Position numbers and translations under genes: made by a program. The notes below the pieces were generated by a model. The model was given only the letters and a program-made list of their open reading frames with translations. It was not told the origin of the DNA and did no database searches. DNA of 64,000 bases from an uncultured Pseudomonadota bacterium (GTDB lineage Bacteria > Pseudomonadota > Alphaproteobacteria > Rhizobiales > Xanthobacteraceae), in NCBI GenBank assembly GCA_963720835.1, contig CAVRHC010000007.1, positions 109,177 through 173,176 on the forward strand, in the 5' to 3' direction. This document shows, in pieces, positions 27,448-40,395 of this stretch; within the stretch, counting starts at the first letter, position 1; every line of letters starts with the position of its first letter.

Positions 27448-28824
27448 TTACTCCAGGCGCGCCGGTTCGGCGTGACCGATCACGCGCTTGATCGACGGCG
27501 AGCGCTCGCGAAGGGCGCGCTCCAACATGTCGACCTTTTCGTGCACCGATTGCACGGTCAGCGCCGGATCGACGTAGCAATGGAAATTGACGATCTCTCC
27601 GTCATCGGTTTCGCGCACGCGCACGTCGTGGACCTCGCGGATCGTTTTGCCGTCGGCGGCGAACTCCGCAAGCGTGATCTCGATGGCCTTGACCCGTTCG
27701 GGCGGCGCTTCGCGTCCGGCCGCCTCCTGTGGTTGCAAAGGCTCAATATGCGTCTCGACCTCGACATCGGCGCCGAGTTCAGCGGCGATGGCATTCTCCA
27801 GGCCGTCGGCCAAATCGTGAGCGGCGCGCAGCGAGAGCTTTCCGTCGACTTCCAGATCGAGCGCGATCGCCAAGCGGTCCCTCAACGCGTGTACCGTGAC
27901 GTGATGCACGGCGAGCGCCCGGTTGCGCGCGATCACCATGACGCGGTCAAGCACCGTTTCATTGCTGAGCGCCACGGGATCGGTGGTCACCACCGGCTCG
28001 GCGCCCAATATGTTCTTGCGCAACGCTTCGGTCACGGCTTCCTTGATTTCGCGCACGCGTTCGAGCGGCAAGGTGCGGCTGACCGCGACAGTGAGATCGA
28101 CGAAAATTTTCTCGCCGACGGCGCGCGCGCGCACCTGTTCGACCGCGACCACGCCCGGCACCTTTGATGCGGTCGTGGTGATGCTGGCAGTAGCGCCCGG
28201 AGGCGCCACGTCGGTAAGCGCATCGATGGTACGGCGGCCGAGCCGCCAGCCGGCGATGCAGACGACGATCGCGACCGCAAGCGCCGCCGCCGAATCCGCC
28301 CACCACACGCCGAAGCGCACGCCAAAAAGCCCGATCAACACCGCGAGCGAAGCCCACAGGTCGGAGGAAAAATGCAACGCGTCGGCTTCCAGCGCCTGGC
28401 TCGATGTCTTTTCGGCCGTGCGTTTGAGCGCGCGCGATCGCACGAAGTCGACGACGATCGAAACGGCCATAACGCCAAACGCCCAGATATTGGCGTCGAC
28501 GGCGTGCGCCTCGTGCTCGATCAGCCGCTTGCCCGCTTCCCAGATCACGAGGCCTGAGAGCAAGAACAATAATGCTGTTTCCGCTAGCGCAGAGACGTTT
28601 TCGAACTTTCCGTGACCGAACTGATGTTCGGCGTCGGCCGGTTTCCCGGCGACACGCACGGCGGCATAGGTGATTACCGTGGCACCGAGATCGATCAACG
28701 AATGCCCGGCTTCGGAAAGAATCGCGAGCGAGCCGGTAGCAAAGCCGACAAGACCTTTTGCGATTGTCAGTCCTGCCGAGGCGGTAATCGAGGTGAGCGC
28801 GACCTGCTCCTTTTCATTCTGCAT
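27448..28824 (-). CDS. cation diffusion facilitator (CDF) transporter with extended C-terminus
   Basis: TM domain with SLAILSEAGHSLIDL and FGHGKFE CDF signatures. At 458 aa it is about 150 aa longer than the CDFs I know, and the tail looks like three tandem ZT_dimer-like domains. Confidence 0.85.
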   Translation of the reverse strand: MQNEKEQVALTSITASAGLTIAKGLVGFATGSLAILSEAGHSLIDLGATVITYAAVRVAGKPADAEHQFGHGKFENVSALAETALLFLLSGLVIWEAGKRLIEHEAHAVDANIWAFGVMAVSIVVDFVRSRALKRTAEKTSSQALEADALHFSSDLWASLAVLIGLFGVRFGVWWADSAAALAVAIVVCIAGWRLGRRTIDALTDVAPPGATASITTTASKVPGVVAVEQVRARAVGEKIFVDLTVAVSRTLPLERVREIKEAVTEALRKNILGAEPVVTTDPVALSNETVLDRVMVIARNRALAVHHVTVHALRDRLAIALDLEVDGKLSLRAAHDLADGLENAIAAELGADVEVETHIEPLQPQEAAGREAPPERVKAIEITLAEFAADGKTIREVHDVRVRETDDGEIVNFHCYVDPALTVQSVHEKVDMLERALRERSPSIKRVIGHAEPARLE

Positions 28825-28835
28825 GCGATGTCCGC

Positions 28836-29831
28836 CTAAGGCGTGACCGGTTTGCCGTCGGCCGCCGCCGAGCGTACGACCGCGTCGAGAATCCGGATGT
28901 TGGCCATGAGTTCATCCGTGGTGAAGCGATAAGGCGAACGGCCTTCGATGGCGTCGGCCCAGGCCTCGAAATTCATACGCACGGTATTGGCGTGATCGTA
29001 GCTGCGCGTCTCGCGCGTCCCGTCGGCCTTGCAATGCACGAAGCTCGACGGAATGCCCTGGTCGACATTGCCGCCTTCCTGTACCTCGACCCAGCCTTGG
29101 TCGCAAAGAATCGTAAAGCGCGCATAGAACGGTGGTGTCGAGAGGCACGTAATGCGTCCGCGCGCGCCGCTCTCGAATTCGATGTCGGCGGTGACGAAAT
29201 CCTCCGATGGCGGCGGAAAAATCTGCGAGGCCGTACGGGCGGCAACGCGCGAGGGCTTTCCCGCGAGCGAAACGAACATGTCGCCGAGGTGGATGCCGAG
29301 CGCGGTCCAGGCGCCGGCCGGCGCGTGCTTGGGATCGCGCCGCCAGTTCGACGGATCCATTTTGCGGAAATTGTTGTGGCTGACATTGGCGTCCATGAGC
29401 AGGATGCGACCGAGCGCGCCGCTGTCGAAGCGCCTGCGCATTTCTTCCAGCGCCGGCTCGTATCGGCGCTCGTGACCGATGCCGAGGACGCTGCCGGCTT
29501 TTTCGCACGCCGCCAGAATACGCTCGGCACTCGCTGCGGTAAGGGCGAGCGGCTTTTCGCAGAACACGTGCTTGCCGGCGGCGAAGGCGGTAACCGCCAT
29601 CTCTTCATGCAGCGCATGCGGGGTGACGACCGCGACCGCCTCAATCTCAGGGTGTTTCAGCAAGTCATGATAGTCTTCGATCAGATCGAAACCGTGCGCA
29701 GCCGCAAACGGTTCGGCCATGGCGACGTCGATGTCGCAGCCGGCGACGACATTGAAGCGGGGGCTGTCGGCGAGGCAGGTCACGATCTGCTTGCCCCACC
29801 AGCCGAGCCCGATGATGCCGATGTAAATCAT
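28836..29831 (-). CDS. Gfo/Idh/MocA family oxidoreductase
   Basis: N-terminal Rossmann motif IGIIGLGWWGK and EKP motif (VFCEKPLA). The start is taken at ATG 29831. Confidence 0.85.
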   Translation of the reverse strand: MIYIGIIGLGWWGKQIVTCLADSPRFNVVAGCDIDVAMAEPFAAAHGFDLIEDYHDLLKHPEIEAVAVVTPHALHEEMAVTAFAAGKHVFCEKPLALTAASAERILAACEKAGSVLGIGHERRYEPALEEMRRRFDSGALGRILLMDANVSHNNFRKMDPSNWRRDPKHAPAGAWTALGIHLGDMFVSLAGKPSRVAARTASQIFPPPSEDFVTADIEFESGARGRITCLSTPPFYARFTILCDQGWVEVQEGGNVDQGIPSSFVHCKADGTRETRSYDHANTVRMNFEAWADAIEGRSPYRFTTDELMANIRILDAVVRSAAADGKPVTP

Positions 29832-29936
29832 GGCGTCGTTATTCCCCTTGCGTCGCGCGCCGACAATGCGGGGCCGAACCGCGCTGCGCAATGCTGGAAG
29901 GCCGATGATTCAACGCGCGACATTTGGCTTGTGAAT

Positions 29937-29951
29937 GATATATAATATATC
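29937..29951. promoter_or_regulatory. perfect AT palindrome in the leader of the XRE/Ehr operon
   Basis: GATATAT-A-ATATATC (7-bp arms) inside a strongly AT-rich 130-bp gap. TATAAT hexamers lie at 29941-29946 and 29972-29977, and TTGACA at 29963-29968 with non-canonical spacing. Confidence 0.35.
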
Positions 29952-30019
29952 AATAATGATGCTTGACATTTTATAATGGCTGGCAAAAATATCATTTATC
30001 CCGAGTCTTGCCGGCCATC

Positions 30020-30277
30020 ATGATTACCTCCTCCCAGATGCGTGCCGCACGCGCCTTGCTTGGTATCGACCAGCGCGAGCTGGCGCAGCGCGCGCGGCTG
30101 TCGCTGCCGACCATCCAGCGCATGGAGGCGAGCAAGGGTGTCGTCCGCGGCAATGTCGAGTCGCTGATGAAGCTCGTCGACGCGCTTGCCGCCAACGGCG
30201 TTGAATTGATCGGGGAGGGCGCCGCTTCGTCGAGCGGCGGCCGCGGCGTGCGCATGAGAGGTGCGCCCGGATCATGA
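30020..30277 (+). CDS. XRE-family helix-turn-helix transcriptional regulator (85 aa)
   Basis: MITSSQMRAARALLGIDQRELAQRARLSLPTIQRMEAS is a typical Cro/C1-type HTH. Its stop overlaps the next start (ATGA at 30274-30277). Confidence 0.75.
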   Translation: MITSSQMRAARALLGIDQRELAQRARLSLPTIQRMEASKGVVRGNVESLMKLVDALAANGVELIGEGAASSSGGRGVRMRGAPGS

Positions 30278-32280
30278 CGGTGGCGTACGCGCTTTACGGC
30301 GTTGCCGCGTTGTTGGCGCTTGCGCCAATCGCGCTCGTCTTGGCACGCTCGCCCAGTGCCAGCGGCGTTGTCTATGGTGCGAGCCTGGTCGTGTCGTTGG
30401 CGCTTGGCGCGATTTCGCTGGTGAGCCTATTCAACGAACAGACGTCCACCATTGTCCTGCCGCTCGGCCTGCCGTGGCTGGGCGCTCATTTTCGCATCGA
30501 TGCGCTTGCCGCTTTTTTCCTCGTCGTCGTGAATCTCGGCGGCGCGGCGGCGAGCCTGTTTGCGCTCGGCTATGGCCGCCACGAAGAGACGCCGCAACGT
30601 GTGTTGCCCTTCTATCCCGTATATTTGGCGGCGATGAATCTCGTCGTCATGGCCGACGACGCGTTCAGCTTTCTGGTGGCGTGGGAGTTCATGTCGCTCT
30701 CGTCCTGGGCGCTTGTGATCTCGCATCACCAAGATCGCGAGAATGTGCGTGCCGGTTACGTTTATCTCTTGATGGCGAGCTTCGGCACGCTGGCGCTGCT
30801 GCTTGCCTTCGGGCTCCTGGCTGGCGCTGACGGCAACTACGCTTTCACCAGCATGCGCGAGTCTCATCCTTCCGCCGAACTCGCCGCGCTGGTGCTAATC
30901 CTCGCCGTTGTCGGTGCCGGTTCTAAATCCGGCGTGGTGCCGCTGCATGCCTGGCTGCCGCTCGCGCACCCGGCCGCGCCCAGCCATGTCTCCGCGCTGA
31001 TGAGCGGTGTGATGACCAAAGTCGCGGTCTACGGCTTCGTGCGCATCGTGTTTGATCTGCTCGGCACCCCGGACTGGTGGTGGAGCATGGTGGTGCTGGG
31101 CGTCGGCGGTATCACTGCGGTGATGGGCGTGCTGTACGCGCTGATGCAGAATGACATCAAGCGTGTGCTCGCTTACAGCACTATCGAGAACATCGGTATT
31201 ATTTACTCCGCGCTTGGGCTTGCCCTCGCATTCAAGGCCGAAGGCCTTTCGTTGGCTGCGGCGCTTGCGCTGACCGCCGGCCTGTTTCATGTGTTCAATC
31301 ACTCGCTCTTCAAGAGCCTGCTGTTTTTCGGCGCCGGCAACGTGCTCAACGCGACCGGCGAACGCGATATGGAGAAGCTGGGCGGGCTCATCCATCGCAT
31401 GCCGAAAACGAGCTTCGTGTTTCTGGTCGGCTGTGTGGCGATTTCGGCGCTACCGCCGTTCAACGGCTTCGTCTCGGAGTGGTTGACTTTCCAAGCCGTC
31501 TTGCTCAGCCCGCAAATTCCGTCCTGGGGCTTGAAGCTTCTGGTGCCGACGGTTGGTGCGCTTCTCGCTCTGTCGGCGGCGCTTGCGGCGGCGTGTTTCG
31601 TTCGTGCCTTCGGCATCACATTCCTTGGCCGGCCACGCACTGCCGCGGCGGGTAGGGCGCAGGAAAGCGATCGGTTTTCGCTGGCTGCGATGTACATCTT
31701 TGCTGCGCTGTGTCTGCTCGCCGGGATTTTCCCCGGTGTCTTCATCGATGCGCTGGCGCCGGTGTCGACGGCGCTCATTGGTGCGGCAATGCCGCATCAA
31801 ACAAACGTCGCATGGCTCTCGATCGTGCCGATCGCCGAGAGCCGCAGCTCTTATAATGGGCTCCTGGTCTTTCTCTTTGTGGTCGCCTCGGGTTCGATCG
31901 GCGCCTTCGTCATCCACCGCCTGGCCTCCGATCGACTGCGTCGGGGGCCAGCCTGGGATTGCGGCTATCCCGATCCAAGCCCGGCCACGCAATATACAGC
32001 GTCGAGCTTTGCCCAGCCGATCCGCCGCGTTTTCGGCACAGTAATTTTTCGCGTGCGCGAGATCGGCGCGATGCCGCCGCCAGGCTCGAGTGTGTCGGCC
32101 AAACTGACGGTCGAGGTCCATGATCAGATCTGGGAGGTGCTCTACGCGCCGATTTCCAATCTCATTGCTTTAACCGCCGAACGGCTCAACGTGCTCCAGT
32201 TTCTCACCATCCGCAGCTACCTGACCCTGGTGTTTGCTGCGCTCATCGTGTTGCTGCTCGTGTTGGCGATCTGGCCATGA
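30274..32280 (+). CDS. Ehr/hydrogenase-4 subunit B-like antiporter-type membrane subunit (NuoL/HyfB family)
   Basis: 668-aa polytopic protein with Mrp/NuoL-type motifs (WEFMSLSSW, GSKSGVVPLHAWLPLAHPAAPSHVSALMSG). Confidence 0.9.
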   Translation: MTVAYALYGVAALLALAPIALVLARSPSASGVVYGASLVVSLALGAISLVSLFNEQTSTIVLPLGLPWLGAHFRIDALAAFFLVVVNLGGAAASLFALGYGRHEETPQRVLPFYPVYLAAMNLVVMADDAFSFLVAWEFMSLSSWALVISHHQDRENVRAGYVYLLMASFGTLALLLAFGLLAGADGNYAFTSMRESHPSAELAALVLILAVVGAGSKSGVVPLHAWLPLAHPAAPSHVSALMSGVMTKVAVYGFVRIVFDLLGTPDWWWSMVVLGVGGITAVMGVLYALMQNDIKRVLAYSTIENIGIIYSALGLALAFKAEGLSLAAALALTAGLFHVFNHSLFKSLLFFGAGNVLNATGERDMEKLGGLIHRMPKTSFVFLVGCVAISALPPFNGFVSEWLTFQAVLLSPQIPSWGLKLLVPTVGALLALSAALAAACFVRAFGITFLGRPRTAAAGRAQESDRFSLAAMYIFAALCLLAGIFPGVFIDALAPVSTALIGAAMPHQTNVAWLSIVPIAESRSSYNGLLVFLFVVASGSIGAFVIHRLASDRLRRGPAWDCGYPDPSPATQYTASSFAQPIRRVFGTVIFRVREIGAMPPPGSSVSAKLTVEVHDQIWEVLYAPISNLIALTAERLNVLQFLTIRSYLTLVFAALIVLLLVLAIWP

Positions 32281-33227
32281 TCCGTGATTTGGCGTTGCAG
32301 GGAGGTGAGATGACGCTGGTGCTGTTGCTCAGCCCGCTGCTGACTGGATTCGTGCGCAAGGTGAAAGCCCGACTGTTGCGGCGGCAGGGGCCGCCGCTGT
32401 TGCAGCCCTATCGCGACCTCATCCGGTTGATGCGCAAGGATGTCGTGCTGGCCGAGAGCGCTTCGTGGCTGTTTCGCGTCATTCCATACATTATCTTCGG
32501 AGGGACTTGGGTTGCTGCTTCGCTCGTTCCGACCTTCCGTGGCGGTTTGCTGTTTTCCTGGTCGGCCGATCTCATCGCCATCATCGCGTTGCTCGGTAGC
32601 GCACGTTTTTTTCTCGCGCTCGCCGGTCTCGATGTCGGCACCAGCTTCGGCGGCATCGGTTCGAGCCGCGAGGTGATGATCGCCTCGCTCGCCGAGCCCG
32701 CGATGCTGATGATTGTTTTTGCCATCGCCTTGATCGCGGGCTCGACTCAACTTTCGACCATGGCGGCCTTTATGGCGTCGCCGCAGGTCGGCTTGCGCGT
32801 ATCGCTCGGGCTCGGGCTGATCGCGCTGATTATGGTGGCGATCGCGGAGAACGCGCGTATCCCAGTCGACAACCCGGCGACGCATCTTGAACTCACCATG
32901 GTGCACGAAGCTATGGTGCTCGAATATTCGGGCCGGCATCTGGCGTTGATCGAATTGTCCGCCTTTCTCAAACTGCTGCTCTACGTCTCGCTGATCGCAT
33001 GCCTGTTCGCGCCCTGGAGCACGGCGCGGCCTGACGCCGCGCCACAGGAGCTTGTCGTCGGCGTTGCGGCTTATGTCGTCAAACTCGCAGTCGGCGGCTT
33101 TCTGCTCGCTGTGTTCGAAACGTCGATCGCCAAGATGCGGGTTTTCCGCGTGCCGCAATTCCTCGGCGCCGCCTTGATGCTTGGCGTTGCTCGCGACGCT
33201 GCTGCTTTCGTGTCGGGGAGCTTCTAG
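32277..33227 (+). CDS. NuoH/HycD/HyfC-like membrane subunit
   Basis: 316-aa polytopic protein with the N-terminal KARLLRRQGPPLLQPYRDL motif typical of HycD/NuoH. It overlaps the upstream stop. Confidence 0.85.
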   Translation: MIRDLALQGGEMTLVLLLSPLLTGFVRKVKARLLRRQGPPLLQPYRDLIRLMRKDVVLAESASWLFRVIPYIIFGGTWVAASLVPTFRGGLLFSWSADLIAIIALLGSARFFLALAGLDVGTSFGGIGSSREVMIASLAEPAMLMIVFAIALIAGSTQLSTMAAFMASPQVGLRVSLGLGLIALIMVAIAENARIPVDNPATHLELTMVHEAMVLEYSGRHLALIELSAFLKLLLYVSLIACLFAPWSTARPDAAPQELVVGVAAYVVKLAVGGFLLAVFETSIAKMRVFRVPQFLGAALMLGVARDAAAFVSGSF

Positions 33228-33230
33228 CCG

Positions 33231-33893
33231 ATGCACGGACTTGAGTTCGATATTGCTCACCTGCTTGCCGGCTCTCTCGTGCTGGCGTCATTCCTGTTGC
33301 TTTATCAGGACCGACTCTACGCACTGCTAAACGTGTATGCGTTGCACGCCGTAGTACTCGCGGCTTCGGTCACCTGGCAGGCTTTCATACAGGATGCGCC
33401 GCATCTTTATATTACGGCTGCCATCGCACTCGGCTTCAAGGCCATCATCATTCCGGTAGCGCTCCACCGGATCATCGTGCGCCTCGGCATCCACCGCCAG
33501 ATCGAGACTGTGGTCGGCGTCGGTCCGGCGATGTTGCTCGGCATAGGCCTCGTTGCGTTGTCCATGGTGGTGATGCTGCGGGTGACGGTGGACGCCGATC
33601 CGCTCGCGCGTGAGGACCTCGCTTTCGCGCTTTCTGTCGTGCTGCTCGGTTTGCTGATCATGGTGACGCGGCGCAATGCGGTCAGCCAGGTGATCGGCTT
33701 CATGTCGCTCGAGAACGGCCTGGTGCTTGCCGCGACCGGCGCCAAGGGCATGCCGCTGGTGGTTGAAATCAGTGTCGCCTTTTCGGTGCTGATCGCCTTC
33801 ATCGTCATCGGCATCTTCCTGTTCCGAATTCGGGAAAGGTTCGACACCGTCGACCTGCACGCGCTCGATAAATTCCGTGGAGAGCGCCGATGA
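33231..33893 (+). CDS. HyfE-like (NuoK-related) membrane subunit
   Basis: 220 aa with a C-terminal GFMSLENGLVLAA motif characteristic of hydrogenase-4 component E. Confidence 0.8.
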   Translation: MHGLEFDIAHLLAGSLVLASFLLLYQDRLYALLNVYALHAVVLAASVTWQAFIQDAPHLYITAAIALGFKAIIIPVALHRIIVRLGIHRQIETVVGVGPAMLLGIGLVALSMVVMLRVTVDADPLAREDLAFALSVVLLGLLIMVTRRNAVSQVIGFMSLENGLVLAATGAKGMPLVVEISVAFSVLIAFIVIGIFLFRIRERFDTVDLHALDKFRGERR

Positions 33894-35329
33894 CGATCGA
33901 CGCGCTGACCGGCGTCTTGTTGATCCCTGCGGCCGCGGCCGCGCTGCTGGCCGTGCTGCCCGGCTATCGGCTGACCGCGCGGCTTAACGTGCTGGCGACG
34001 CTGGCGACGTTTCTCACAGCGGTGTCTCTGTTCTTCGTCGAGCCAAAGTCCGGCTCCTATTTGCTGGTGGACGATCTCAATAAGGTCTTCATCGTGTTGA
34101 CGACCTTCGTCGGCTTCACCACCAGCGCTTTCAGCGCAAGCTATATCAGCCACGAGATCGAAACGGGCAAGTTGACGCCGACTTTCGTGCGCTTTTATCA
34201 CGCTATGTACCAGGCGTTGATGTTCGCCATGAATCTCGCGCTGGTCGCCAACAATATCGGGCTGATGTGGGTGGCGATCGAGATGGCGACGCTGACCACC
34301 GTGCTGATGGTCGGCATCTACCGGACGCACGAGGCACTGGAAGCGGCCTGGAAATATTTCATCCTCGGCAGCGTCGGCATCGCGCTCGCCTTGTTCGGCA
34401 CCATTCTCGTCTATATGGCGGCACGGCCGGTGATCGGCGAGGGCCTCGACGCCATGGTGTGGACGGTGCTGATCAAGCGTGCCGACAGTTTCGACGCAGC
34501 GCTGCTCAATGTCGCCTTCGTATTTCTGCTGCTCGGCTACGGCACCAAAGTAGGACTGGCGCCGCTGCATGCATGGTTGCCCGACGCCCATGCCGAAGGC
34601 CCGACGCCCATCTCTGCGGTGCTCTCCGGCCTGCTGCTTAACGTCGCGCTCTATGCGCTGCTGCGCTTCAAAATGTTGCTGGCACTCAATCCGGCAGCGA
34701 TTGCGCCGGGCCCGCTGATGGTGACGATGGGGCTCATCTCCTGTGTGTTCGCCGCGTTCATGTTGTACCGCCGGCGCGACATCAAGCGACTGTTCGCCTA
34801 TTCCTCGATCGAACACATGGGCATCATCGTATTCGCCTTTGGCATGGGCGGACCGCTCGCCAATTTTGCCGGCCTCCTGCACATGACCATGCACTCGCTC
34901 ACCAAATCGGCGATCTTCTTTGCGGTCGGTCACATCTCTCAAGTCAAAGGCACGCAGAAGATTGCCGACATGGGCGGCCTGACGGTAAGCAATCCGGTGC
35001 TTGGTTGGGGCCTAGTACTGGGCGTGGTGGCGATTGCCGGCCTGCCGCCGCTCGGAATTTTCATGAGCGAATTTCTTGTGGTGAGCTCGACCTTTGCGCG
35101 TCAGCCTTGGCTCGCAATCATTCTGGTGTTCGGAATCTTGATTGCGCTCGGCGGCTTGTTCTATCGCCTCAACACCGTGGCCTTCGGCGAGCCACGCGGA
35201 TCGACGGCGCCGACGCATGCTTCCTACGTGCCGATGTTCGCCCATCTCGCGATCGTTTTTGTCGCGGGCTTTTATATGCCGCCGGCGTTGGTTCTCGGCT
35301 TCGAGAACGTCGCCAAGTTGCTAGGATAA
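33890..35329 (+). CDS. NuoN/HyfF-like antiporter-type membrane subunit
   Basis: 479 aa with GTKVGLAPLHAWLPDAHAEGPTPISAVLSG. ATGA overlap with the upstream gene. Confidence 0.9.
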   Translation: MTIDALTGVLLIPAAAAALLAVLPGYRLTARLNVLATLATFLTAVSLFFVEPKSGSYLLVDDLNKVFIVLTTFVGFTTSAFSASYISHEIETGKLTPTFVRFYHAMYQALMFAMNLALVANNIGLMWVAIEMATLTTVLMVGIYRTHEALEAAWKYFILGSVGIALALFGTILVYMAARPVIGEGLDAMVWTVLIKRADSFDAALLNVAFVFLLLGYGTKVGLAPLHAWLPDAHAEGPTPISAVLSGLLLNVALYALLRFKMLLALNPAAIAPGPLMVTMGLISCVFAAFMLYRRRDIKRLFAYSSIEHMGIIVFAFGMGGPLANFAGLLHMTMHSLTKSAIFFAVGHISQVKGTQKIADMGGLTVSNPVLGWGLVLGVVAIAGLPPLGIFMSEFLVVSSTFARQPWLAIILVFGILIALGGLFYRLNTVAFGEPRGSTAPTHASYVPMFAHLAIVFVAGFYMPPALVLGFENVAKLLG

Positions 35330-35334
35330 CGCCC

Positions 35335-36843
35335 ATGGCTTTGTTCAACGACATAAAGCATCGCGAGTATGCCAAGGCGCATCGGCCTTGGCCGCGGCTC
35401 ATTGTCGGCGACGAGGGTTGGAAGCAGGCGATCGATCTGTTGACGAGCGGGCGCTGCACGCTGCTCGGGCTTTGGGGTGATGCGCCCGATGTGCACATGG
35501 CACTGCTTGATGAAACCGCAGGCGACATTGCGGTGATCAGTTACGCTTGCGTCAACGGAAATTTTCCGAGCGTTGCCGCGCACCATCCGCCCGCGATCCG
35601 GCTTGAGCGCGCAATCCGCGATCTGTTCGGCCTCGAAGCGCTGGGCGCGCCCGATGCGCGGACCTGGCTCGACCTCGGCTTCTGGGATGTGCGGCATCCG
35701 CTCGGCAAGAAAAAGCGCGCGCAAAAACCGGCGCCTTACGAATTCTTGCCGGTGGAAGGCGAGGGGCTGCACCAGATTCCGGTCGGCCCCGTGCATGCCG
35801 GCATCATCGAGCCGGGGCATTTCCGTTTCACCGCCAATGGCGAATTCGTGGTGCGGCTGGAGCAGAGGCTCGGCTACGTGCACAAGGGCATCGAGTCCCT
35901 GATGGCCGGATCGACGTTGAGCGAAGCGGCCAAGCTCGCGGGCCGTACCTCCGGCGACAGCACCGTCGCTTACTCATATGCCTTTGCGCAGGCGGCCGAA
36001 GCGGCCTTGCAGGTGGACGTGCCGCCGCGCGCGGTCTACCTGCGCGCGTTGATGGCGGAGCTCGAGCGGCTCGCCAACCATTTCGGCGATATCGGCGCGA
36101 TCTGCAACGATGCTTCCTTTGCGCTGATGCATGCGCAAACAGGTATCCTGCGCGAACGCGTCCTGCGCGCGGCGCAGTTGTGTTTCGGCCACCGGCTAAT
36201 GATGGATGTGATCGTGCCAGGCGGCCTCGCGCGCGATCTTGCGCCGGACGGTGAAAAGGCATTGCGCGATTTGCTGTTCGAGGTACGCAAGGTTTTCCCG
36301 CGGCTGATCGAGCTTTACGACAAAACGGCATCTCTACAGGACCGCACGGTCACCACAGGCATCGCAAAACCGGACTATGTGCGCCAGTTCGGCGCCGGCG
36401 GCTATGTCGGCCGTGCCTCCGGCCGCGCATTCGATGCGCGTCGAAACCTCAACTATGCGCCGTACAACGATCTCAAATTCGAGGTGCCGGTACTGGACGC
36501 CGGCGACGTCAATGCCCGCGTCTGGATCCGCATCCGCGAGGTGGAGCAGAGCCTTGGGCTGATCGAGCAGATCCTCAGCCGCCTGCCGGACGGCAAGACT
36601 GACACGCCGATTAAAGCGAGCGGGCGAATCAGTGAAGGAGCGGCGCTGGTGGAAGCCTTCCGTGGTGACGTCTTGGTTTGGCTGCGGCTCGACGGCAAGG
36701 GGCGCGTGGCGCGCTGCCACTTGCGCGATGCGTCCTGGTTTCAATGGCCGCTCTTGGAGACCGCAATCGAAGACAACATCGTCGCGGATTTTCCGCTCTG
36801 CAACAAGTCGTTCAATTGTTCGTATTCGGGGCACGACCTCTGA
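35335..36843 (+). CDS. NuoC-NuoD fusion / HycE-like large subunit lacking the NiFe cysteine ligands
   Basis: VGPVHAGIIEPGHFRF and RLGYVHKGIE are typical of group-4 hydrogenase large subunits. Where RxCGxCxxxH is expected the sequence reads RTSGDSTVAY, and where DPCxxCxxR is expected it reads NCSYSGHDL followed by the stop. Confidence 0.9.
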   Translation: MALFNDIKHREYAKAHRPWPRLIVGDEGWKQAIDLLTSGRCTLLGLWGDAPDVHMALLDETAGDIAVISYACVNGNFPSVAAHHPPAIRLERAIRDLFGLEALGAPDARTWLDLGFWDVRHPLGKKKRAQKPAPYEFLPVEGEGLHQIPVGPVHAGIIEPGHFRFTANGEFVVRLEQRLGYVHKGIESLMAGSTLSEAAKLAGRTSGDSTVAYSYAFAQAAEAALQVDVPPRAVYLRALMAELERLANHFGDIGAICNDASFALMHAQTGILRERVLRAAQLCFGHRLMMDVIVPGGLARDLAPDGEKALRDLLFEVRKVFPRLIELYDKTASLQDRTVTTGIAKPDYVRQFGAGGYVGRASGRAFDARRNLNYAPYNDLKFEVPVLDAGDVNARVWIRIREVEQSLGLIEQILSRLPDGKTDTPIKASGRISEGAALVEAFRGDVLVWLRLDGKGRVARCHLRDASWFQWPLLETAIEDNIVADFPLCNKSFNCSYSGHDL

Positions 36844-37352
36844 TGCGCCGAATCCTGTTGCAAAGCCTCACGCGCGGTCCGCTCACGGAAGCCGCACCTG
36901 CGCCGGACGAGGCGGCGCTGGCGGAACTCGCCAAGAGCGTCGACCGCGTCGCGCGCGCCAGACTCGGCCGCTCGCTCTCCATTCGCCAGGTTGATGCCGG
37001 CTCCTGCAACGGCTGCGAACTGGAAATCCACGCACTCAGCAATGCCTTCTATGACCTCGAACGCTTTGGTTTTCATTTCGTCGCATCGCCGCGCCATGCC
37101 GACGTCCTGATGGTGACCGGTCCTGTGACCAAGAACATGCGCGAGGCGCTCGAGCGCACTTACAACGCGACGCCCGATCCGAAATGGGTGGTGGCCGTCG
37201 GTGGTTGCGCCGCCGACGGTGGCGCGTTTGCCGGCAGCTATGCGGTGGTCGGTGGCGTGAAAGACGTCATTCCAGTCGATTTGCACATTCGCGGCTGTCC
37301 ACCAACGCCGACCGATCTTCTCAGAGGGCTGCTCGCGCTGCTGACCGTTTGA
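36843..37352 (+). CDS. NuoB/HycG-like small subunit with intact 4-Cys [4Fe-4S] motif
   Basis: GSCNGCE, GGCA and GCPP cysteine motifs. The ATG overlaps the large-subunit stop by 1 nt. Confidence 0.9.
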   Translation: MRRILLQSLTRGPLTEAAPAPDEAALAELAKSVDRVARARLGRSLSIRQVDAGSCNGCELEIHALSNAFYDLERFGFHFVASPRHADVLMVTGPVTKNMREALERTYNATPDPKWVVAVGGCAADGGAFAGSYAVVGGVKDVIPVDLHIRGCPPTPTDLLRGLLALLTV

Positions 37353-37582: not shown

Positions 37583-38092
37583 ATGAGCGCTATGGAAGCT
37601 CTTAGCGATGCTGTCGGCGCCGATTTCCGCGCCACGATGCGCCGGTTCCCCGCCACCGTGACCATCGTGACCGCCAATGACGGGACACGCGATCACGGCA
37701 TGACCGTATCGTCCGTCACGTCGGTATCAATGTCGCCGCCTTCTCTGATGGTCTGTCTGAACAATCGGACGCTGCTGCACGAAATGCTGCTGAGTCAGGC
37801 GAATTTCGCCGTCAACGTGCTCAGCCACGAGCATATGAGCTTGTCGGACGCCTTCAGCGGCCGCGTTGATCCGGAGGTTCGCTTCGCCGCAGGTGGTTGG
37901 GAGCGCGACGAGTTGGGCATGATGGTGCTGCCCTCGGCGCATGCCGTTGTGGTGTGTCGGCGGATGGCCGCTGTGCCCTATGGCACCCACACTATTTTCG
38001 TCGGCCAAGTCACGCGGGCGCGTGTCGATGACCGCACGCGACCGCTGCTATATGCCGAGGCCGCGTATTGCATTTCTCATCCTGCCACTTGA
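37583..38092 (+). CDS. flavin reductase (HpaC/HsaB-type NAD(P)H:flavin oxidoreductase component)
   Basis: 169 aa with FRATMRRFPATVTIVT...GMTVSSVTSVSMSPPSLMVCLN, typical of the flavin_reduct domain. Confidence 0.85.
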   Translation: MSAMEALSDAVGADFRATMRRFPATVTIVTANDGTRDHGMTVSSVTSVSMSPPSLMVCLNNRTLLHEMLLSQANFAVNVLSHEHMSLSDAFSGRVDPEVRFAAGGWERDELGMMVLPSAHAVVVCRRMAAVPYGTHTIFVGQVTRARVDDRTRPLLYAEAAYCISHPAT

Positions 38093-38141
38093 CGGACCGC
38101 GCTGTTAAGCGGCTGTCGCGCCGTTAGGGCCTTTGCCGAAG

Positions 38142-38173
38142 AAAAAATGGCCGGGGGGAGGAACCCGGCCATT
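38142..38173 (-). terminator. rho-independent terminator of the monooxygenase gene
   Basis: On the minus strand, AATGGCCGGG ... CCCGGCCATT forms a 10-bp stem followed by TTTTTT, 10 nt after the stop at 38183. Confidence 0.6.
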
Positions 38174-38182
38174 GTCCGCAAT

Positions 38183-39412
38183 TCAGAATATGCCTTGCGG
38201 TTGCAGTCCTAATTTGTGCGTTCCGTAGAGCGCCGACAGGGTATCCCAATCGATGCTTGCATGGAGTGCTGCGGTGTTGGCGTCGCGCCAGAAACGCTGC
38301 ACGCGATTCTTCTCGTCCGCAGCCGCCGCGCCAACCTTGGTGAAGAGATCGTTGACGACTTCCGACGAGGTCCGCGCGGCAAAGCCATGATTACGCCGGA
38401 TCCGCACACGCTGTTCGATATCGAGTGTACCGCCGTTGCAGACAATGTCCTGGCCTTCCTTAAGGCTGGTCACCATCAGGGTTTGCGCGGCATCGATCCG
38501 CGCGGAGGCCTGACCGATCAGGCTTTGAATGAGCTGCGATTCGGCGACCTTTTCGAAAACGCCGGGACGGGCCATGCGCTTTGCATCGCGAGCGGTTTCC
38601 GTAAAGGCGTCGATCGCCCCTTGCGCCATTCCAACGATGGGCGAAACCAGTGCGGTCGGCCCGAACGTCGGGTAGCCCATACGCGCTTGGCGGTTGCCCG
38701 GAACGTCAAGGCCCGGGACCTTGCCGGAAAAGATAGCGCTCAATGGCAACACGCGATGTTTCGGAACGAAGACCGGATCGACGATGCCAACCGTCTTCGA
38801 ACCGGTGCCCTGAAGTCCGCAAACGTTCCAGCTGTTGTGATCGACAACAACGTCGCTCACCGGTACCAGGCACCAGGCAAGCGCTGGCGGGCCTTCTTTA
38901 TTTGGGTTGGGCAATAGCGCGGCAAGGATCAGCCACGCGGCACTATCGACACCGCTTGCCCACGGCCAGTTGCCGGAGATCTTGTAACCGCCGTCGACCG
39001 CCTCGACCTTGGGTGTCGGCAAATATGAGACGGCGAGAAGGTTGTCCGGATCGTCCCAGACCTCCTGCTGCGCTTCGAGCGGAAAGAAGGCGGTCATCCA
39101 GCCAAAGCAGACTGCGAGGGTCCCGCACCAGCCGGTGCTGCCGCAGGCGCGGCCGAGCTCGAAGCCGATCTGCGCCAGTTCCGCGGGACCGTATTCATAG
39201 CCGCCGAAGCGTTCGGGCTGCATCACACGAAACACGTCCGCATCGCGCAAAGCGTCCATGGTCTCGGCGGGGACGCGTTTGGCTTTTTCGGTAGCGAGGG
39301 CGCGAGCATCGATTTCGGGGCGCAGTTTGCGGATGCGATCAAGGATCATGCTGAATTCCGGCCGCTGCGCCGCGCTAGCGGCGCCAACCGGGCGCAAAGC
39401 TTCCTTCTGCAT
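38183..39412 (-). CDS. acyl-CoA dehydrogenase-fold flavin-dependent monooxygenase, oxygenase component (HsaA/C2-HpaH-like)
   Basis: 409 aa with ACAD-type N, middle and C domains (RVMQPERFGGYEY ... ISGNWPWASG ... RFWRDANTAALH). It is convergent with the flavin reductase gene. Confidence 0.75.
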   Translation of the reverse strand: MQKEALRPVGAASAAQRPEFSMILDRIRKLRPEIDARALATEKAKRVPAETMDALRDADVFRVMQPERFGGYEYGPAELAQIGFELGRACGSTGWCGTLAVCFGWMTAFFPLEAQQEVWDDPDNLLAVSYLPTPKVEAVDGGYKISGNWPWASGVDSAAWLILAALLPNPNKEGPPALAWCLVPVSDVVVDHNSWNVCGLQGTGSKTVGIVDPVFVPKHRVLPLSAIFSGKVPGLDVPGNRQARMGYPTFGPTALVSPIVGMAQGAIDAFTETARDAKRMARPGVFEKVAESQLIQSLIGQASARIDAAQTLMVTSLKEGQDIVCNGGTLDIEQRVRIRRNHGFAARTSSEVVNDLFTKVGAAAADEKNRVQRFWRDANTAALHASIDWDTLSALYGTHKLGLQPQGIF

Positions 39413-39638
39413 TTTTTGTTGTCCTCCCTAGGTGTAACAGTCGTTACGGTTCGTAGTCTGCACCTTTGCGCCGCGTTTGACAAATCCATAGTTACGCCCC
39501 CTGGCGACACAGGATGCGGCGAAGACGTTTTTATTCGCAGTTATGCAGGGTTAGCGAAGAACGCCCACGGGTGCGGCAGGGATGGCGCCGCCGCTCCGGG
39601 GGAAACCACGCGGGCCCGAAAGTGGCGTTGATGTGCGG

Positions 39639-40325
39639 CTAGCGCTTCGGTCTATCCGTGCGGCAGCCTTGCAGGAAAACTTTCACGGCAAGCCGCACCG
39701 TGCGGTCGATGTTTTTAGTGCGGTCTTTTTCGCTCGCAGCGGAGGTAAGCCAGCTTAGCAGATGGTCGCCAATCAGCATGTCGTGAAATAGGACGGCAAG
39801 ACGGCGCGGGTCCTCGTCATCACGGATGTTTCCGGCGCGCTGTTGGGTTGCGATCCAGTCGGTAATGATCTGATAAACGGTGCGCGGACCAGTATCATAG
39901 AACAATTTGCCGACGGTCGGAAATGTACGTCCAATTGAGGTCACCAGGCGATGGAAACGCAGAATTTGTGGTGACAAAACCTTCGACAGGAATGAATGCG
40001 CGATCCGTGTGAGTTGCTCGTCGACGGTGCCGATCGGCCGGGTGTCGATCTGGATGGTGACGTCCTTGCACATCTGTTCGACCACGGCTTCGAACAGCTT
40101 CTCCTTGCTACCGAAATTGGAATAGATCGTACCCTTCGAGCCGCCGACCGCGTCGATGATGTCGTTGATCGAGACGCCGTCGTAGCCCTTCTCGAGGAAC
40201 AGTTTGGCGGCGGAACGGACGATCTTGTCGCGCTTGGTATCGGTGCGCTTTTGGCGCACGGCGGGGCGCGAAACATCGGTTGCTTTGGCTGGCACCCGCG
40301 GGGCCGCACGTTCTGCAGATTCCAT
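39639..40325 (-). CDS. TetR family transcriptional regulator
   Basis: N-terminal HTH IVRSAAKLFLEKGYDGVSINDIIDAVGGSKGTIYSNFGSKEKLF. The start is taken at ATG 40325. Confidence 0.9.
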   Translation of the reverse strand: MESAERAAPRVPAKATDVSRPAVRQKRTDTKRDKIVRSAAKLFLEKGYDGVSINDIIDAVGGSKGTIYSNFGSKEKLFEAVVEQMCKDVTIQIDTRPIGTVDEQLTRIAHSFLSKVLSPQILRFHRLVTSIGRTFPTVGKLFYDTGPRTVYQIITDWIATQQRAGNIRDDEDPRRLAVLFHDMLIGDHLLSWLTSAASEKDRTKNIDRTVRLAVKVFLQGCRTDRPKR

Positions 40326-40395
40326 GGCGCCACCTATGACAATTATTGTTTGCTGACGCCAGCACAAAACCTTTTGACACAAGACGCCGGCTCCA

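Follow-up and report, generated by a model that had tools for sequence, protein, structure and literature searches.

What kind of complex is encoded by a locus whose large subunit resembles that of a [NiFe]-hydrogenase and ends without the cysteines that bind the metals? The gene in question lies in a 64,000-nucleotide stretch of DNA, analysed here as a whole and termed the window. It encodes a fused NuoC/NuoD-type protein of 502 aa without Ni-Fe ligands, which we assign to EhrL (35335-36843, forward strand, as are the other ehr genes and the HTH gene below; Pfam PF00329 and PF00346), and runs from an ATG at 35335 to a TGA stop at 36841-36843. The best PDB sequence match is HycE (7z0s_E, phmmer, E=2.7e-57). 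The AF2 model (pLDDT 95.6) retrieves the same chain as top match in Foldseek (TM 0.93, E=1.9e-37), so the predicted structure shows a hydrogenase large-subunit fold, that of HycE; a weak Pfam match to NiFeSe_Hases falls under the cut-off. Looking up the exact EhrL sequence returned no record, and its genomic context is drawn from relatives. As argued below, positions 36814-36840 very probably encode the C-terminus of the Ni-Fe-free large subunit of a working Ehr membrane complex, and this complex is not a hydrogenase.

The former C-terminal Ni-Fe motif and the protein end are encoded at 36787-36843 (+), which translates to DFPLCNKSFNCSYSGHDL and then the stop (D485-F-P-L-C489-N-K-S-F-N494-C495-S496-Y-S-G499-H500-D501-L502-stop). 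The last nine residues (N494-L502, 36814-36840) are the N-C-S-Y-S-G-H-D-L of a preliminary description, whose reading of the tail is borne out by this translation. The phmmer alignment to HycE is gap-free here, with D-F-P-L-C-N-K-S-F-N-C-S-Y-S-G over D-A-P-L-I-I-G-S-L-D-P-C-Y-S-C, and sets S496 on HycE C531, G499 on C534, C495 on P530 and N494 on D529, while L502, directly before the stop, falls on R537, the mature C-terminus of HycE (native HycE numbering; PMC9474812). On the N-terminal side, R204-T-S206-G207-D208-S209 (35944-35961, +) stands for R-x-C-G-x-C; with R-T-S-G-D-S under R-V-C-G-I-C, S206 replaces HycE C241 and S209 replaces C244. Neither hydrogenase signature is therefore present with its two ligand cysteines: for L1 (R-x-C-G-x-C-x3-H) EhrL reads R-T-S-G-D-S-T-V-A-Y and HycE R-V-C-G-I-C-G-F-A-H, and for L2 (D-P-C-x-x-C-x-x-H/R) EhrL reads N-C-S-Y-S-G-H-D-L and HycE D-P-C-Y-S-C-T-D-R. 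An independent anchor for the tail alignment comes from relatives of the same lineage that keep four cysteines and end in ...NKSF[EN]LCY[SA]Cx-D-R-stop. Searched alone against the PDB, the tail matched HycE only; neither MbsL nor MbhL was recovered.

These alignments confirm what had been proposed by eye, namely Ser and Gly at the two C-terminal ligand positions, a Cys displaced one position upstream, the lack of any C-terminal extension and the absence of all four canonical ligands. The converse possibility, that the ligand positions are taken by the two cysteines of CNKSFNC, was checked in the same way and is not borne out. Since S206, S209, S496 and G499 replace the Ni-Fe cysteines, the sequence indicates that EhrL cannot hold a canonical Ni-Fe centre and does not need C-terminal maturation cleavage. 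The preliminary description further drew attention to a protein end lying exactly where hydrogenase precursors are cleaved. The position is as described, but it is not special: the ends of MbhL (6cfw_L, 380 aa) and of the complex I 49-kDa subunit (8ba0_D, 428 aa) align with the EhrL end, and the four-Cys sister sequences likewise stop there, after ...D-R. An end at this point is shown in this way to be ancestral, and the EhrL lineage, its four-Cys sisters, MbhL and NuoD never had an extension.

The C-terminal motif had also been called degenerate, a term that proves misleading. In 80 orthologues (overall identity 57-81%) the 18-residue tail has a mean conservation of 0.974, against 0.643 for the whole protein, and is one of the four best-conserved of 485 sliding windows. 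S206, G207 and D208 are 100% conserved in this set, the stop position is identical in 81/81 loci, and codons vary freely among synonyms with the amino acids unchanged. Judged by these alignments, no part of EhrL is more strongly conserved than the former active-site elements, and the Ni-Fe site has been replaced rather than eroded. The replacement signature in EhrL and its orthologues reads S-G-D-[ST] on the N-terminal side and N-x-S-Y-[SA]-G-x-D-L on the C-terminal side, and D208 and G499 co-occur across the wider family (77-sequence alignment). Glu159, in the beta1-beta2 loop (GPVHAGIIEPGHFRF; codon 35809-35811, +), is the retained counterpart of the proton-relay Glu (HycE E193, MbhL E21), whose role has been described in FHL and MBH (PMC9474812, PMC7684303). 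It is conserved to at least 90% in the family alignment, and the canopy Arg443 is likewise kept.

The same 77 sequences include four-Cys relatives (C-G-x-C ... [EN]-L-C-Y-[SA]-C-x-D-R-stop) and one-Cys intermediates. In a rough NJ tree the four-Cys forms are basal and every Cys-less form falls in one derived group. The nearest Cys-bearing relatives of EhrL share a common six-gene layout and C-terminal context with it, and this placement, taken from the NJ tree only, agrees with PMC10284858. The Cys-less state is conserved in hundreds of relatives, and the family comprises more than 8000 close matches in metagenomes and 7481 representative clusters. The minimal six-subunit, single-cluster, complex-I-like Ehr machine is very common in aerobic soil Proteobacteria.

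The EhrL gene belongs to a translationally coupled cluster, ehrA-B-C-D-L-S, encoding homologues of HyfB, C, E, F, G and I. Ehr was first named in Geobacter sulfurreducens, from which the names EhrA, C, L and S are taken (PMC7894505); EhrB and EhrD are adopted here for the remaining two subunits. EhrA (668 aa, 30274-32280) is a HyfB-like, antiporter-type membrane subunit that passes the cut-off of NCBIfam NF005086 'hydrogenase 4 subunit B' (893 bits, cut-off 667), with E138, K218, K249, K347 and E402 invariant in 58 orthologues. It is followed by EhrB (316 aa, 32277-33227), a HycD/NuoH-like membrane anchor (Pfam PF00146 NADHdh, E=8.1e-39), and by EhrC (220 aa, 33231-33893), a HyfE-like membrane subunit that matches NF008556 'hydrogenase 4 membrane subunit' at E=9.5e-25, under the cut-off. 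EhrD (479 aa, 33890-35329), the HyfF-like antiporter-type membrane subunit, passes NF005043 'hydrogenase 4 subunit F' (866 bits, cut-off 533). Its K220, E394 and N251, all invariant in 78 orthologues, align with E. coli NuoM K234, E407 and K265, respectively. Both antiporter-like subunits thus keep invariant Glu and Lys residues; the EhrD channel, with an invariant Asn for the TM8 lysine K265 of NuoM, may work differently or not at all. The ATG of the last gene overlaps the EhrL stop (TGATG) and opens EhrS (169 aa, 36843-37352), a NuoB/HycG-type small subunit (Pfam PF01058, E=3.4e-34) whose best PDB match is HycG (7z0s_G, E=3.4e-36), with an identical C-N-G-C-E motif. Its C55, C58, C122 and C152 form a hydrogenase-type CxxC...C...C site, occur in 59/59 orthologues and are predicted to bind one [4Fe-4S] cluster. 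The operon has no NuoI/HycF-type two-cluster subunit, the component that wires every characterised relative. Of 80 genome loci from Alpha-, Beta- and Gammaproteobacteria and Terriglobia, all that are long enough to span the six-gene unit contain it.

A small XRE-type helix-turn-helix (HTH) protein (85 aa, 30020-30277; Pfam HTH_3, E=2.3e-5) is encoded immediately before ehrA, its stop overlapping the start of that first membrane-subunit gene (ATGA). A homologue adjoins the cluster in most of the 80 loci; where it lies just upstream it shares the strand of the cluster, and where it lies just downstream it is on the opposite one. When the ORFs in the 10-kb flanks of loci of at least 15 kb were clustered, this regulator was the sole recurrent flank gene; no conserved redox partner gene and no conserved Hyp or endopeptidase gene was found there. 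The palindrome GATATATAATATATC (29937-29951, no strand assigned), in an AT-rich promoter island, is a candidate operator for the HTH protein. Of 59 regions upstream of HTH homologues, 23 carry the pattern GATRY-N5-7-RYATC (mean in shuffles 0.4), and 29700-30400 holds five sigma-70-like sites where 0.2 are expected. Several neighbours were considered as partners and set aside. An ABC ATPase cluster seen in 12 loci shifts in position from one to the next and probably reflects coincidental paralogues, and adjacency to the cluster is unconserved for the flavin reductase, acyl-CoA-dehydrogenase-like protein and TetR regulator downstream as well as for the GFO/IDH/MocA oxidoreductase and CDF transporter upstream. 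The 64-kb window contains no ferredoxin motif, and its six-frame translation gave no Hyp or endopeptidase signature in what is a weak motif test.

Ehr complexes are defined by a large subunit homologous to that of group 4 hydrogenases without the Ni-Fe cysteines (PMC6349859, PMC10284858, PMC4378227). They have been described as lacking CxxC motifs, as close to group 4f and as of unknown function (PMC10284858, PMC6349859, PMC4378227, PMC10432482, PMC6728331). The cluster studied here has a group 4 large-subunit homologue without Ni-Fe-binding cysteines, genes for NuoL-like, NuoH-like, HyfE-like, second antiporter-like, large and small subunits side by side, and a position beside group 4 (4f) hydrogenases in the rough NJ tree. 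Ligand loss and the missing extension are textbook Ehr traits, already known; the former defines a class that has been described, and the earlier observation is therefore correct yet concerns a recognised class. In the literature that we found, there was no description of the S-G-D-[ST]...S-Y-[SA]-G-x-D-L-stop signature, of the clade-specific CNKSFNC pair or of the XRE-type regulator with its palindrome, and a search of it for functional or structural work on Ehr, hyfBCEFGI, H16_A2196-2201 or Rv0087 returned no study.

We infer that the Ehr complex is a working membrane machine, in which a redox or protonation event at the EhrS cluster and the EhrL pocket is most likely coupled to ion translocation. 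Its substrate would be neither H2/H+ nor a canonically bound quinone, and the polar pocket (Asp208, Ser, Asn, Glu159) would form the coupling or substrate site. The more specific proposal that the former Ni-Fe pocket, beside the fully ligated hydrogenase-type [4Fe-4S] cluster of EhrS and with proton-relay Glu and canopy Arg in place, is a live active or coupling site for new chemistry is advanced only tentatively, and we rate it as unlikely. Could EhrL instead be a functional [NiFe]-hydrogenase with non-canonical ligands? The HycE fold and the sub-cut-off NiFeSe_Hases match would suit this, but none of the four ligand cysteines is left, Gly499 is unable to ligate, hundreds of relatives share the Cys-less state, the motif test, weak as it is, gave no hyp or endopeptidase signature in the 64-kb window, and HydDB leaves Ehr out of the hydrogenases (PMC5037454, PMC7735108); such an enzyme is hardly conceivable. 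To regard the cluster as a decaying, pseudogene-like relic of a hydrogenase operon would accord with the lost catalytic ligands and with the 'incomplete operon' label in the Cupriavidus genome paper (PMC2864759). This, too, we hold to be almost certainly wrong, given intact and translationally coupled ORFs, six-gene synteny over 80 genomes, a tail that is the most conserved segment and is fixed at the amino acid level over free synonymous sites, and the abundance of homologues in metagenomes.

Two further readings keep the complex at work. Ehr might be a complex-I-like quinone reductase, with the EhrS cluster reducing quinone in an EhrL/EhrB cavity: the fold and subunit set resemble a Q module plus membrane arm, NuoD models match EhrL at E=1e-46 to 1e-61, and every host belongs to quinone-containing, largely aerobic Proteobacteria. 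The details fit poorly, however, and make this quite unlikely. The two ligands of the quinone head group are missing, since in the alignment with 8ba0_D Tyr87 of Nqo4 becomes Gly207 and His38 becomes an Ile in the beta1-beta2 loop (roles in PMC7684303); EhrS has C55-N-G-C58, as in HycG and MbhJ, and not the consecutive CC of complex I (PMC8165549); the NuoD equivalogs stay far below cut-off (NF004739, 208 versus 360 bits; TIGR01962, 158 versus 459); and no input module, whether for NADH or otherwise, recurs in the 10-kb flanks. In an alternative scenario without redox chemistry, Ehr would be an Mrp-like cation/proton antiporter capped by EhrL and EhrS, the cluster being structural or a redox sensor. 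A single predicted cluster with no wire leading to it, no conserved donor or acceptor gene nearby, intact antiporter residues and a dedicated small regulator all speak for this. Against it, conservation peaks in the former catalytic pocket and the beta1-beta2 loop, and the proton-relay Glu and canopy Arg are kept; a passive cap would need less, though coupling loops might also explain the conservation. We consider this scenario unlikely, and continue to favour a redox or protonation event coupled to ion translocation.

A separate question is whether the pair Cys489/Cys495 marks a new metal site. That the orthologues be checked for the CNKSFNC stretch had been suggested at the outset, and the outcome is divided: C489 and C495 each occur in 78/80 orthologues, with His500 in 64/80, and outside the proteobacterial clade of EhrL the cysteines are not kept. 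A pocket rebuilt for another metal or cofactor, with Cys489 and Cys495 as ligands together with His500 and/or Asp208 or Glu159, would be in line with these counts, with Asp208 being invariant and restricted to Cys-less forms, and with Cys495 directly adjoining a former ligand position. Yet beyond the closest clade the same operon type has Ile, Val or Leu at 489 and Leu or Gly at 495, hydrophobic swaps typical of packing positions, and in one orthologue (locus L039) both are reverted. His500 is itself variable (Q, V, A, C, S, P, N), the candidates do not co-occur as any coherent set of three or four ligands, and a pair six residues apart, placed by the model on a helix and the following loop, fits no known metal motif. 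A rebuilt metal pocket of this kind is accordingly very unlikely. We also considered a new four-Cys site, C257/C461/C489/C495, and rejected it: C257 is also present in HycE and the four-Cys forms, and C461 varies even where C489 and C495 persist. By the pattern of substitutions, Cys489 and Cys495 are most likely packing residues, not ligands. On the unlikely reading of a live pocket, the pair might add a redox-active dithiol or a metal site in the clade of the window.

Recognising Ehr has practical consequences. Annotation pipelines often label its genes 'Ni,Fe-hydrogenase III large subunit' or 'NADH-quinone oxidoreductase subunit C', and their recognition prevents a false inference of H2 metabolism in soil Alphaproteobacteria. 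Moreover, the most constrained part of the protein is the former active site, where an invariant Asp stands in for a metal centre, and this provides concrete residues to mutate, with D208, E159, S206, S496, C489 and C495 as candidates.

The window cluster can be compared with several known systems. Four-Cys sisters such as the one in CP001336.1 (GCA_000021925.1; protein P0267, locus L086), which we take to be Desulfitobacterium hafniense DCB-2, have the same six-gene order as the window and, at about 34-37% identity, the same C-terminal context (DFPL-x-NKSF-[EN]-L-...-D-R-stop) without extension. They differ in keeping C-G-x-C and C-Y-[SA]-C and in having V, A, M or S where EhrL has Asp208; in some, for example at locus L085, a ferredoxin-type gene separates those for the large and small subunits. 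Because Ehr has been described as close to group 4f (PMC10284858), these sisters are presumably group 4f-type [NiFe]-hydrogenases. With HycE/HycG (7Z0S) the window proteins share the NuoC-NuoD fusion, the loop motif EPGHFR, the canopy Arg and the small-subunit C-N-G-C-E. HycE, in contrast, has C241, C244, C531 and C534 and a 32-residue extension beyond R537, where EhrL has S, S, S and G and no extension, and its canopy Asp529 is Asn494 in EhrL. E. coli FHL further includes the ferredoxin subunits HycF and HycB and the formate dehydrogenase FdhF, whereas the window cluster has no ferredoxin or formate dehydrogenase partner.

With NuoD/NuoB of complex I the window complex shares its overall architecture, the loss of all four Ni-Fe cysteines and the aligned end (8ba0_D), but it has neither the quinone-ligand His and Tyr nor the CC motif of the complex I cluster, and no NuoEFGI input chain. 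The only hydrogenase-derived relative without a Ni-Fe centre, like Ehr, whose function is known is MBS of Pyrococcus furiosus (formerly Mbx; 6U8Y), a membrane-bound sulfane reductase with its chemistry at the proximal [4Fe-4S] cluster (PMC7684303). MbsL retains two of the four cysteines but not the proton-relay Glu, its pocket is hydrophobic, and the motif in MbsJ is shortened, so that one Fe lacks a Cys ligand; EhrL retains none of the four, keeps Glu159 and has a polar pocket, and EhrS has four cysteines at hydrogenase spacing. MBS is also an Mrp-type complex of 13 subunits, one of them NuoI-like (PMC7684303), against six in the window complex, which on these features (no retained Ni-Fe Cys, Glu159 kept, six subunits) does not group with MBS/Mbx. 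Complexes of the Ehr class have been reported from Sulfobacillus, Nitrospira, ammonia-oxidising archaea, Margulisbacteria and Mycobacterium tuberculosis (Rv0081-Rv0087), and in the last a regulator gene, Rv0081, heads the operon as in the window (PMC6728331). The gene layout is also that of hyfBCEFGI in Cupriavidus (PMC2864759) and in Acidithiobacillus, whose catalytic subunit is a non-hydrogenase according to HydDB (PMC7735108). The subunit set is the same as in the Ehr class at large and nothing essential differs, and the window cluster is one of its proteobacterial members.

EhrL, the large subunit of the energy-converting hydrogenase-related (Ehr) complex, is encoded at 35335-36843 on the + strand and combines the Pfam domains PF00329 (NuoC-type) and PF00346 (NuoD-type), with a further, sub-threshold match to NiFeSe_Hases. 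The ORF listing gave a longer frame with a TTG start (35005-36843), which we replaced by the ATG at 35335, 5 bases past the stop of the preceding gene. Taking this ATG as the real start gives a protein of 502 residues, and nearly all relatives are of equal length. Positions 36787-36843 translate to DFPLCNKSFNCSYSGHDL and a stop; thus, the nine codons at 36814-36840 represent N494-L502, followed by TGA, and the C-terminal N-C-S-Y-S-G-H-D-L of the preliminary description is literally correct. Among proteins of solved structure, HycE of the E. coli formate hydrogenlyase is the best sequence match (7z0s_E, E=2.7e-57); MbhL (6cfw_L) comes next, together with many 49-kDa subunits of complex I. HycE is again the top structural match (TM 0.93) of the AlphaFold2 model of EhrL, which is very confident (pLDDT 95.6; input, a 77-sequence alignment).

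The 581-residue HycE chain fits what we take to be a native length of 569 plus 12 extra residues. Native numbering was anchored on C534 and on the residues named in PMC9474812. The EhrL-HycE alignment is gap-free across both motifs. At the N-terminal one, the Ni-Fe ligands C241 and C244 of HycE fall on S206 and S209 of EhrL, with G242 and I243 on G207 and D208. At the C-terminal one, the ligands C531 and C534 fall on S496 and G499, and the surrounding P530, Y532, S533, T535 and D536 on C495, Y497, S498, H500 and D501. All four canonical ligands are therefore gone, as had been proposed by eye, including the Ser and Gly at the C-terminal ligand positions and the displaced Cys one residue upstream. 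The proton-relay Glu, E193, is matched by E159, and the canopy residues S283, R478 and D529 by N248, R443 and N494 (codon 36814-36816). This canopy Asp of the D-P-C motif is "strictly conserved" across the superfamily according to the FHL structure paper (PMC9474812). Its position holds Asn494 in EhrL and Glu or Asn in the relatives of this lineage with all four ligand cysteines (four-Cys forms), in which the Pro of the motif is replaced by Leu. R537, the mature C-terminus of HycE, aligns with L502, where EhrL stops, whereas the deposited HycE runs 32 residues further; the absence of a C-terminal extension is thus borne out. That the protein ends at the precursor cleavage point also holds by alignment, but not as a surprise, since the four-Cys relatives end there too, as do MbhL (380 residues) and the complex I 49-kDa subunit 8ba0_D (428 residues), both exactly at the position aligned with L502. 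EhrL is thus no [NiFe]-hydrogenase, and its C-terminus requires no processing.

Searching 1.84 billion representative proteins, we obtained 7481 relatives. MAFFT alignment of 95 long representatives (at least 440 aa), and then of a cleaned set of 76 relatives (three from a separate homolog search), distinguishes three states. Four-Cys forms, at ~34-37% identity, read E-R-x-C-G-x-C ... DFPL-x-NKSF-[EN]-L-C-Y-[SA]-C-x-D-R before the stop; one-Cys forms read R-x-C-G-D-S ... [SA]-Y-A-G-x-D-[LM]; and the Cys-less forms, which far outnumber the other two, have R-x-S-G-D-[STNE] ... N-[LCG]-S-Y-[SA]-G-x-D-L, the latter two likewise followed by the stop. Because the context DFPL-x-NKSF-x-x-x-Y-x-x-x-D is common to all three, the ligand positions are unambiguous, and because all three share the end position, the missing extension is older than the Cys loss. 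Across the family alignment Asp208 and Gly499 co-occur almost without exception, and no four-Cys form has Asp208. In a crude neighbor-joining tree rooted on HycE, four-Cys forms are basal and all Cys-less forms make up one derived group, a pattern consistent with, though only suggestive of, a single ligand loss followed by diversification. The one-Cys intermediates (P0139, P0174, P0168, P0257, P0253, P0242 and P0239) retain the first N-terminal ligand Cys, yet already possess Asp208 and Gly499; in this rough tree they nest within the Cys-less group.

A scan of one genome per species confirmed at least 598 loci, of which the 80 best (57-78% identity) were retained as orthologs. Most are alphaproteobacterial (Pseudolabrys, Bradyrhizobium, Mesorhizobium, Rhodopseudomonas palustris, Azospirillum, Rhizobium), and the remainder includes Beta- and Gammaproteobacteria and Terriglobia. 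Mean conservation reaches 0.974 in the 18-residue tail versus 0.643 for the whole of EhrL, and sliding windows starting at 481-485 occupy ranks 1-4 and 6 of 485. The beta1-beta2 loop comes next in conservation. At the former N-terminal ligand motif, S206, G207 and D208 are invariant in all 80. Synonymous sites of the tail codons vary freely among 81 loci: Gly499 is encoded by GGG (32), GGC (28), GGT (11) and GGA (10), Ser492 by both TCN and AGY, and the stop keeps an identical position in 81/81 with all three stop codons represented. EhrL is under strong purifying selection, most of all in its former Ni-Fe site, which has been replaced and has not decayed; the term "degenerate", previously applied to this motif, does not suit the segment with the highest conservation in EhrL.

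Nor do the cysteines of CNKSFNC, C489 and C495, occupy ligand positions, since they align with Ile and Pro of HycE. Within the ortholog clade their conservation is high (78/80 each; His500, 64/80), but across the Cys-less family at large residue 489 can equally be Ile, Val or Leu, and residue 495 is usually Leu and sometimes Gly. C495 is hardly ever seen without C489, and one ortholog (L039) has Ile at 489 and Leu at 495 together. In the AlphaFold2 model C489 lies within helix 483-493 and C495 in a short loop ahead of helix 497-501. For this pair, a role in packing is more probable than one as a clade-specific dithiol or metal site. A larger Cys set including C489 and C495 was discarded: C257 is also found in HycE and four-Cys forms, and C461 is variable.

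EhrL is the fifth gene of a tight + strand cluster with ATGA or TGATG start/stop overlaps. It follows EhrA (HyfB-like, 30274-32280; NF005086, above cut-off), EhrB (NuoH/HycD-like, 32277-33227; PF00146), EhrC (HyfE-like, 33231-33893; NF008556, below cut-off) and EhrD (HyfF-like, 33890-35329; NF005043, above cut-off), and precedes EhrS (NuoB/HycG-like, 36843-37352; PF01058). Every genome locus of sufficient length has the six genes in this order. An XRE-type HTH gene (85 aa, 30020-30277) overlaps EhrA, to which it is translationally coupled; its homolog adjoins the cluster in most loci, with no other conserved gene in the 10-kb flanks. A GATRY-N5-7-RYATC palindrome was found in 23/59 regions upstream of HTH genes versus 0.4 in shuffles, its copy in the window being GATATATAATATATC at 29937-29951, within an AT-rich island that holds five sigma-70-like sites. 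This candidate is probably an autoregulatory operator. Further upstream, 27448-28824 (- strand) encodes a 458-aa cation diffusion facilitator whose C-terminal region has three separate ZT_dimer matches, an unusually long cytoplasmic tail for the family. The genes downstream (37583-40382) encode a flavin reductase (+), a protein with acyl-CoA-dehydrogenase fold (-) and a TetR regulator (-), and as a group resemble a two-component flavin-dependent oxygenase unit; in other genomes they are not conserved beside the Ehr cluster.

A CxxCxxCxxxC ferredoxin motif is absent from all frames of the 64-kb window, and thus the Ehr complex is without a NuoI/HycF-type two-cluster (2x[4Fe-4S]) subunit. A four-Cys sister on CP001336.1 (L086), presumably Desulfitobacterium hafniense DCB-2, has the same six-gene layout, likewise without a ferredoxin gene; another (L085) carries a Fer4 gene, placed between those for the large and small subunits. 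The two-cluster subunit is present in MBH, MBS, FHL, NDH and complex I alike (PMC8165549).

EhrS matches HycG (E=3.4e-36) and MbhJ. Its motif is the hydrogenase-type C-N-G-C-E, where complex I has two adjacent cysteines, and the four EhrS cysteines are conserved in 59/59 orthologs. Aligning EhrD with E. coli NuoM places K220 on K234 (TM7 Lys), E394 on E407 (TM12 Glu) and N251 (codon 34640-34642) on K265, the central TM8 lysine, correspondences read from the alignment itself. N251 is Asn in 78/78 orthologs, in which K220, E394, E131 (TM5 Glu) and K339 are also invariant, as are E138, K218, K249, K347 and E402 of EhrA. For the EhrA residues and for E131 and K339 of EhrD, we assume helix assignments from complex I motif knowledge. 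Given that these cysteines and residues are kept, the single Fe-S cluster and the ion-translocation machinery look intact at the sequence level.

EhrL is most likely a peripheral subunit, "catalytic or coupling" in role, of a membrane complex with six subunits. This complex would couple ion passage via EhrA and EhrD to an event involving the [4Fe-4S] cluster and a polar pocket (D208, E159, R443, N248, N494 and the serines). Whether the Ehr complex here acts as a working ion-translocating redox module seems to us about evenly balanced. A non-redox antiporter bearing an EhrL/EhrS cap is a live alternative. So is an atypical quinone reductase, against which it counts that the quinone ligands Tyr and His of complex I are Gly207 and Ile in EhrL.

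The six-gene complex is the Ehr complex, and the observation, confirmed here with its interpretation supported, belongs to a phenomenon already known: the two features that had seemed surprising are class-defining or ancestral. Ehr was defined as group 4 hydrogenase relatives without Ni-Fe-binding residues, near group 4f by phylogeny and of unknown function (PMC6349859, PMC10284858, PMC4378227, PMC10432482), and HydDB was trained to leave it out (PMC5037454). The names EhrA (NuoL-like), EhrC (HyfE-like), EhrL and EhrS come from Geobacter (PMC7894505). A six-gene hyfBCEFGI cluster was reported in Cupriavidus metallidurans CH34 and C. necator H16, where a role in lithotrophy was judged unlikely (PMC2864759), and in Acidithiobacillus ferrooxidans, with a catalytic subunit classed as non-hydrogenase by HydDB (PMC7735108); the M. 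tuberculosis Rv0081-Rv0087 operon, headed by a regulator, is regarded as Ehr (PMC6728331). The literature searched contained no functional or structural study of any Ehr/hyfBCEFGI complex, and what is left to discover is the function of a very abundant complex. Close EhrL homologs are named "Ni,Fe-hydrogenase III large subunit" or "NADH-quinone oxidoreductase subunit C" in databases; both names mislead, EhrL having neither Ni-Fe nor quinone ligands. To this picture we add that the most conserved part of EhrL is the former site, with a definable replacement signature; that the CNKSFNC pair is clade-specific; that the cluster of the small subunit and the antiporter residues look intact; that the six genes are accompanied by a small regulator of their own, with its conserved palindrome; and that a ferredoxin-type subunit or partner is not encoded nearby. 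Finally, the EhrL pocket differs from both characterized Ni-free relatives: from complex I at the Tyr and His positions, and from MBS, which has kept two Cys and lost the Glu, with a hydrophobic pocket and an open Fe on the proximal cluster (PMC7684303), whereas EhrL retains the Glu and adds an Asp, and the EhrS cluster is predicted to be fully ligated.
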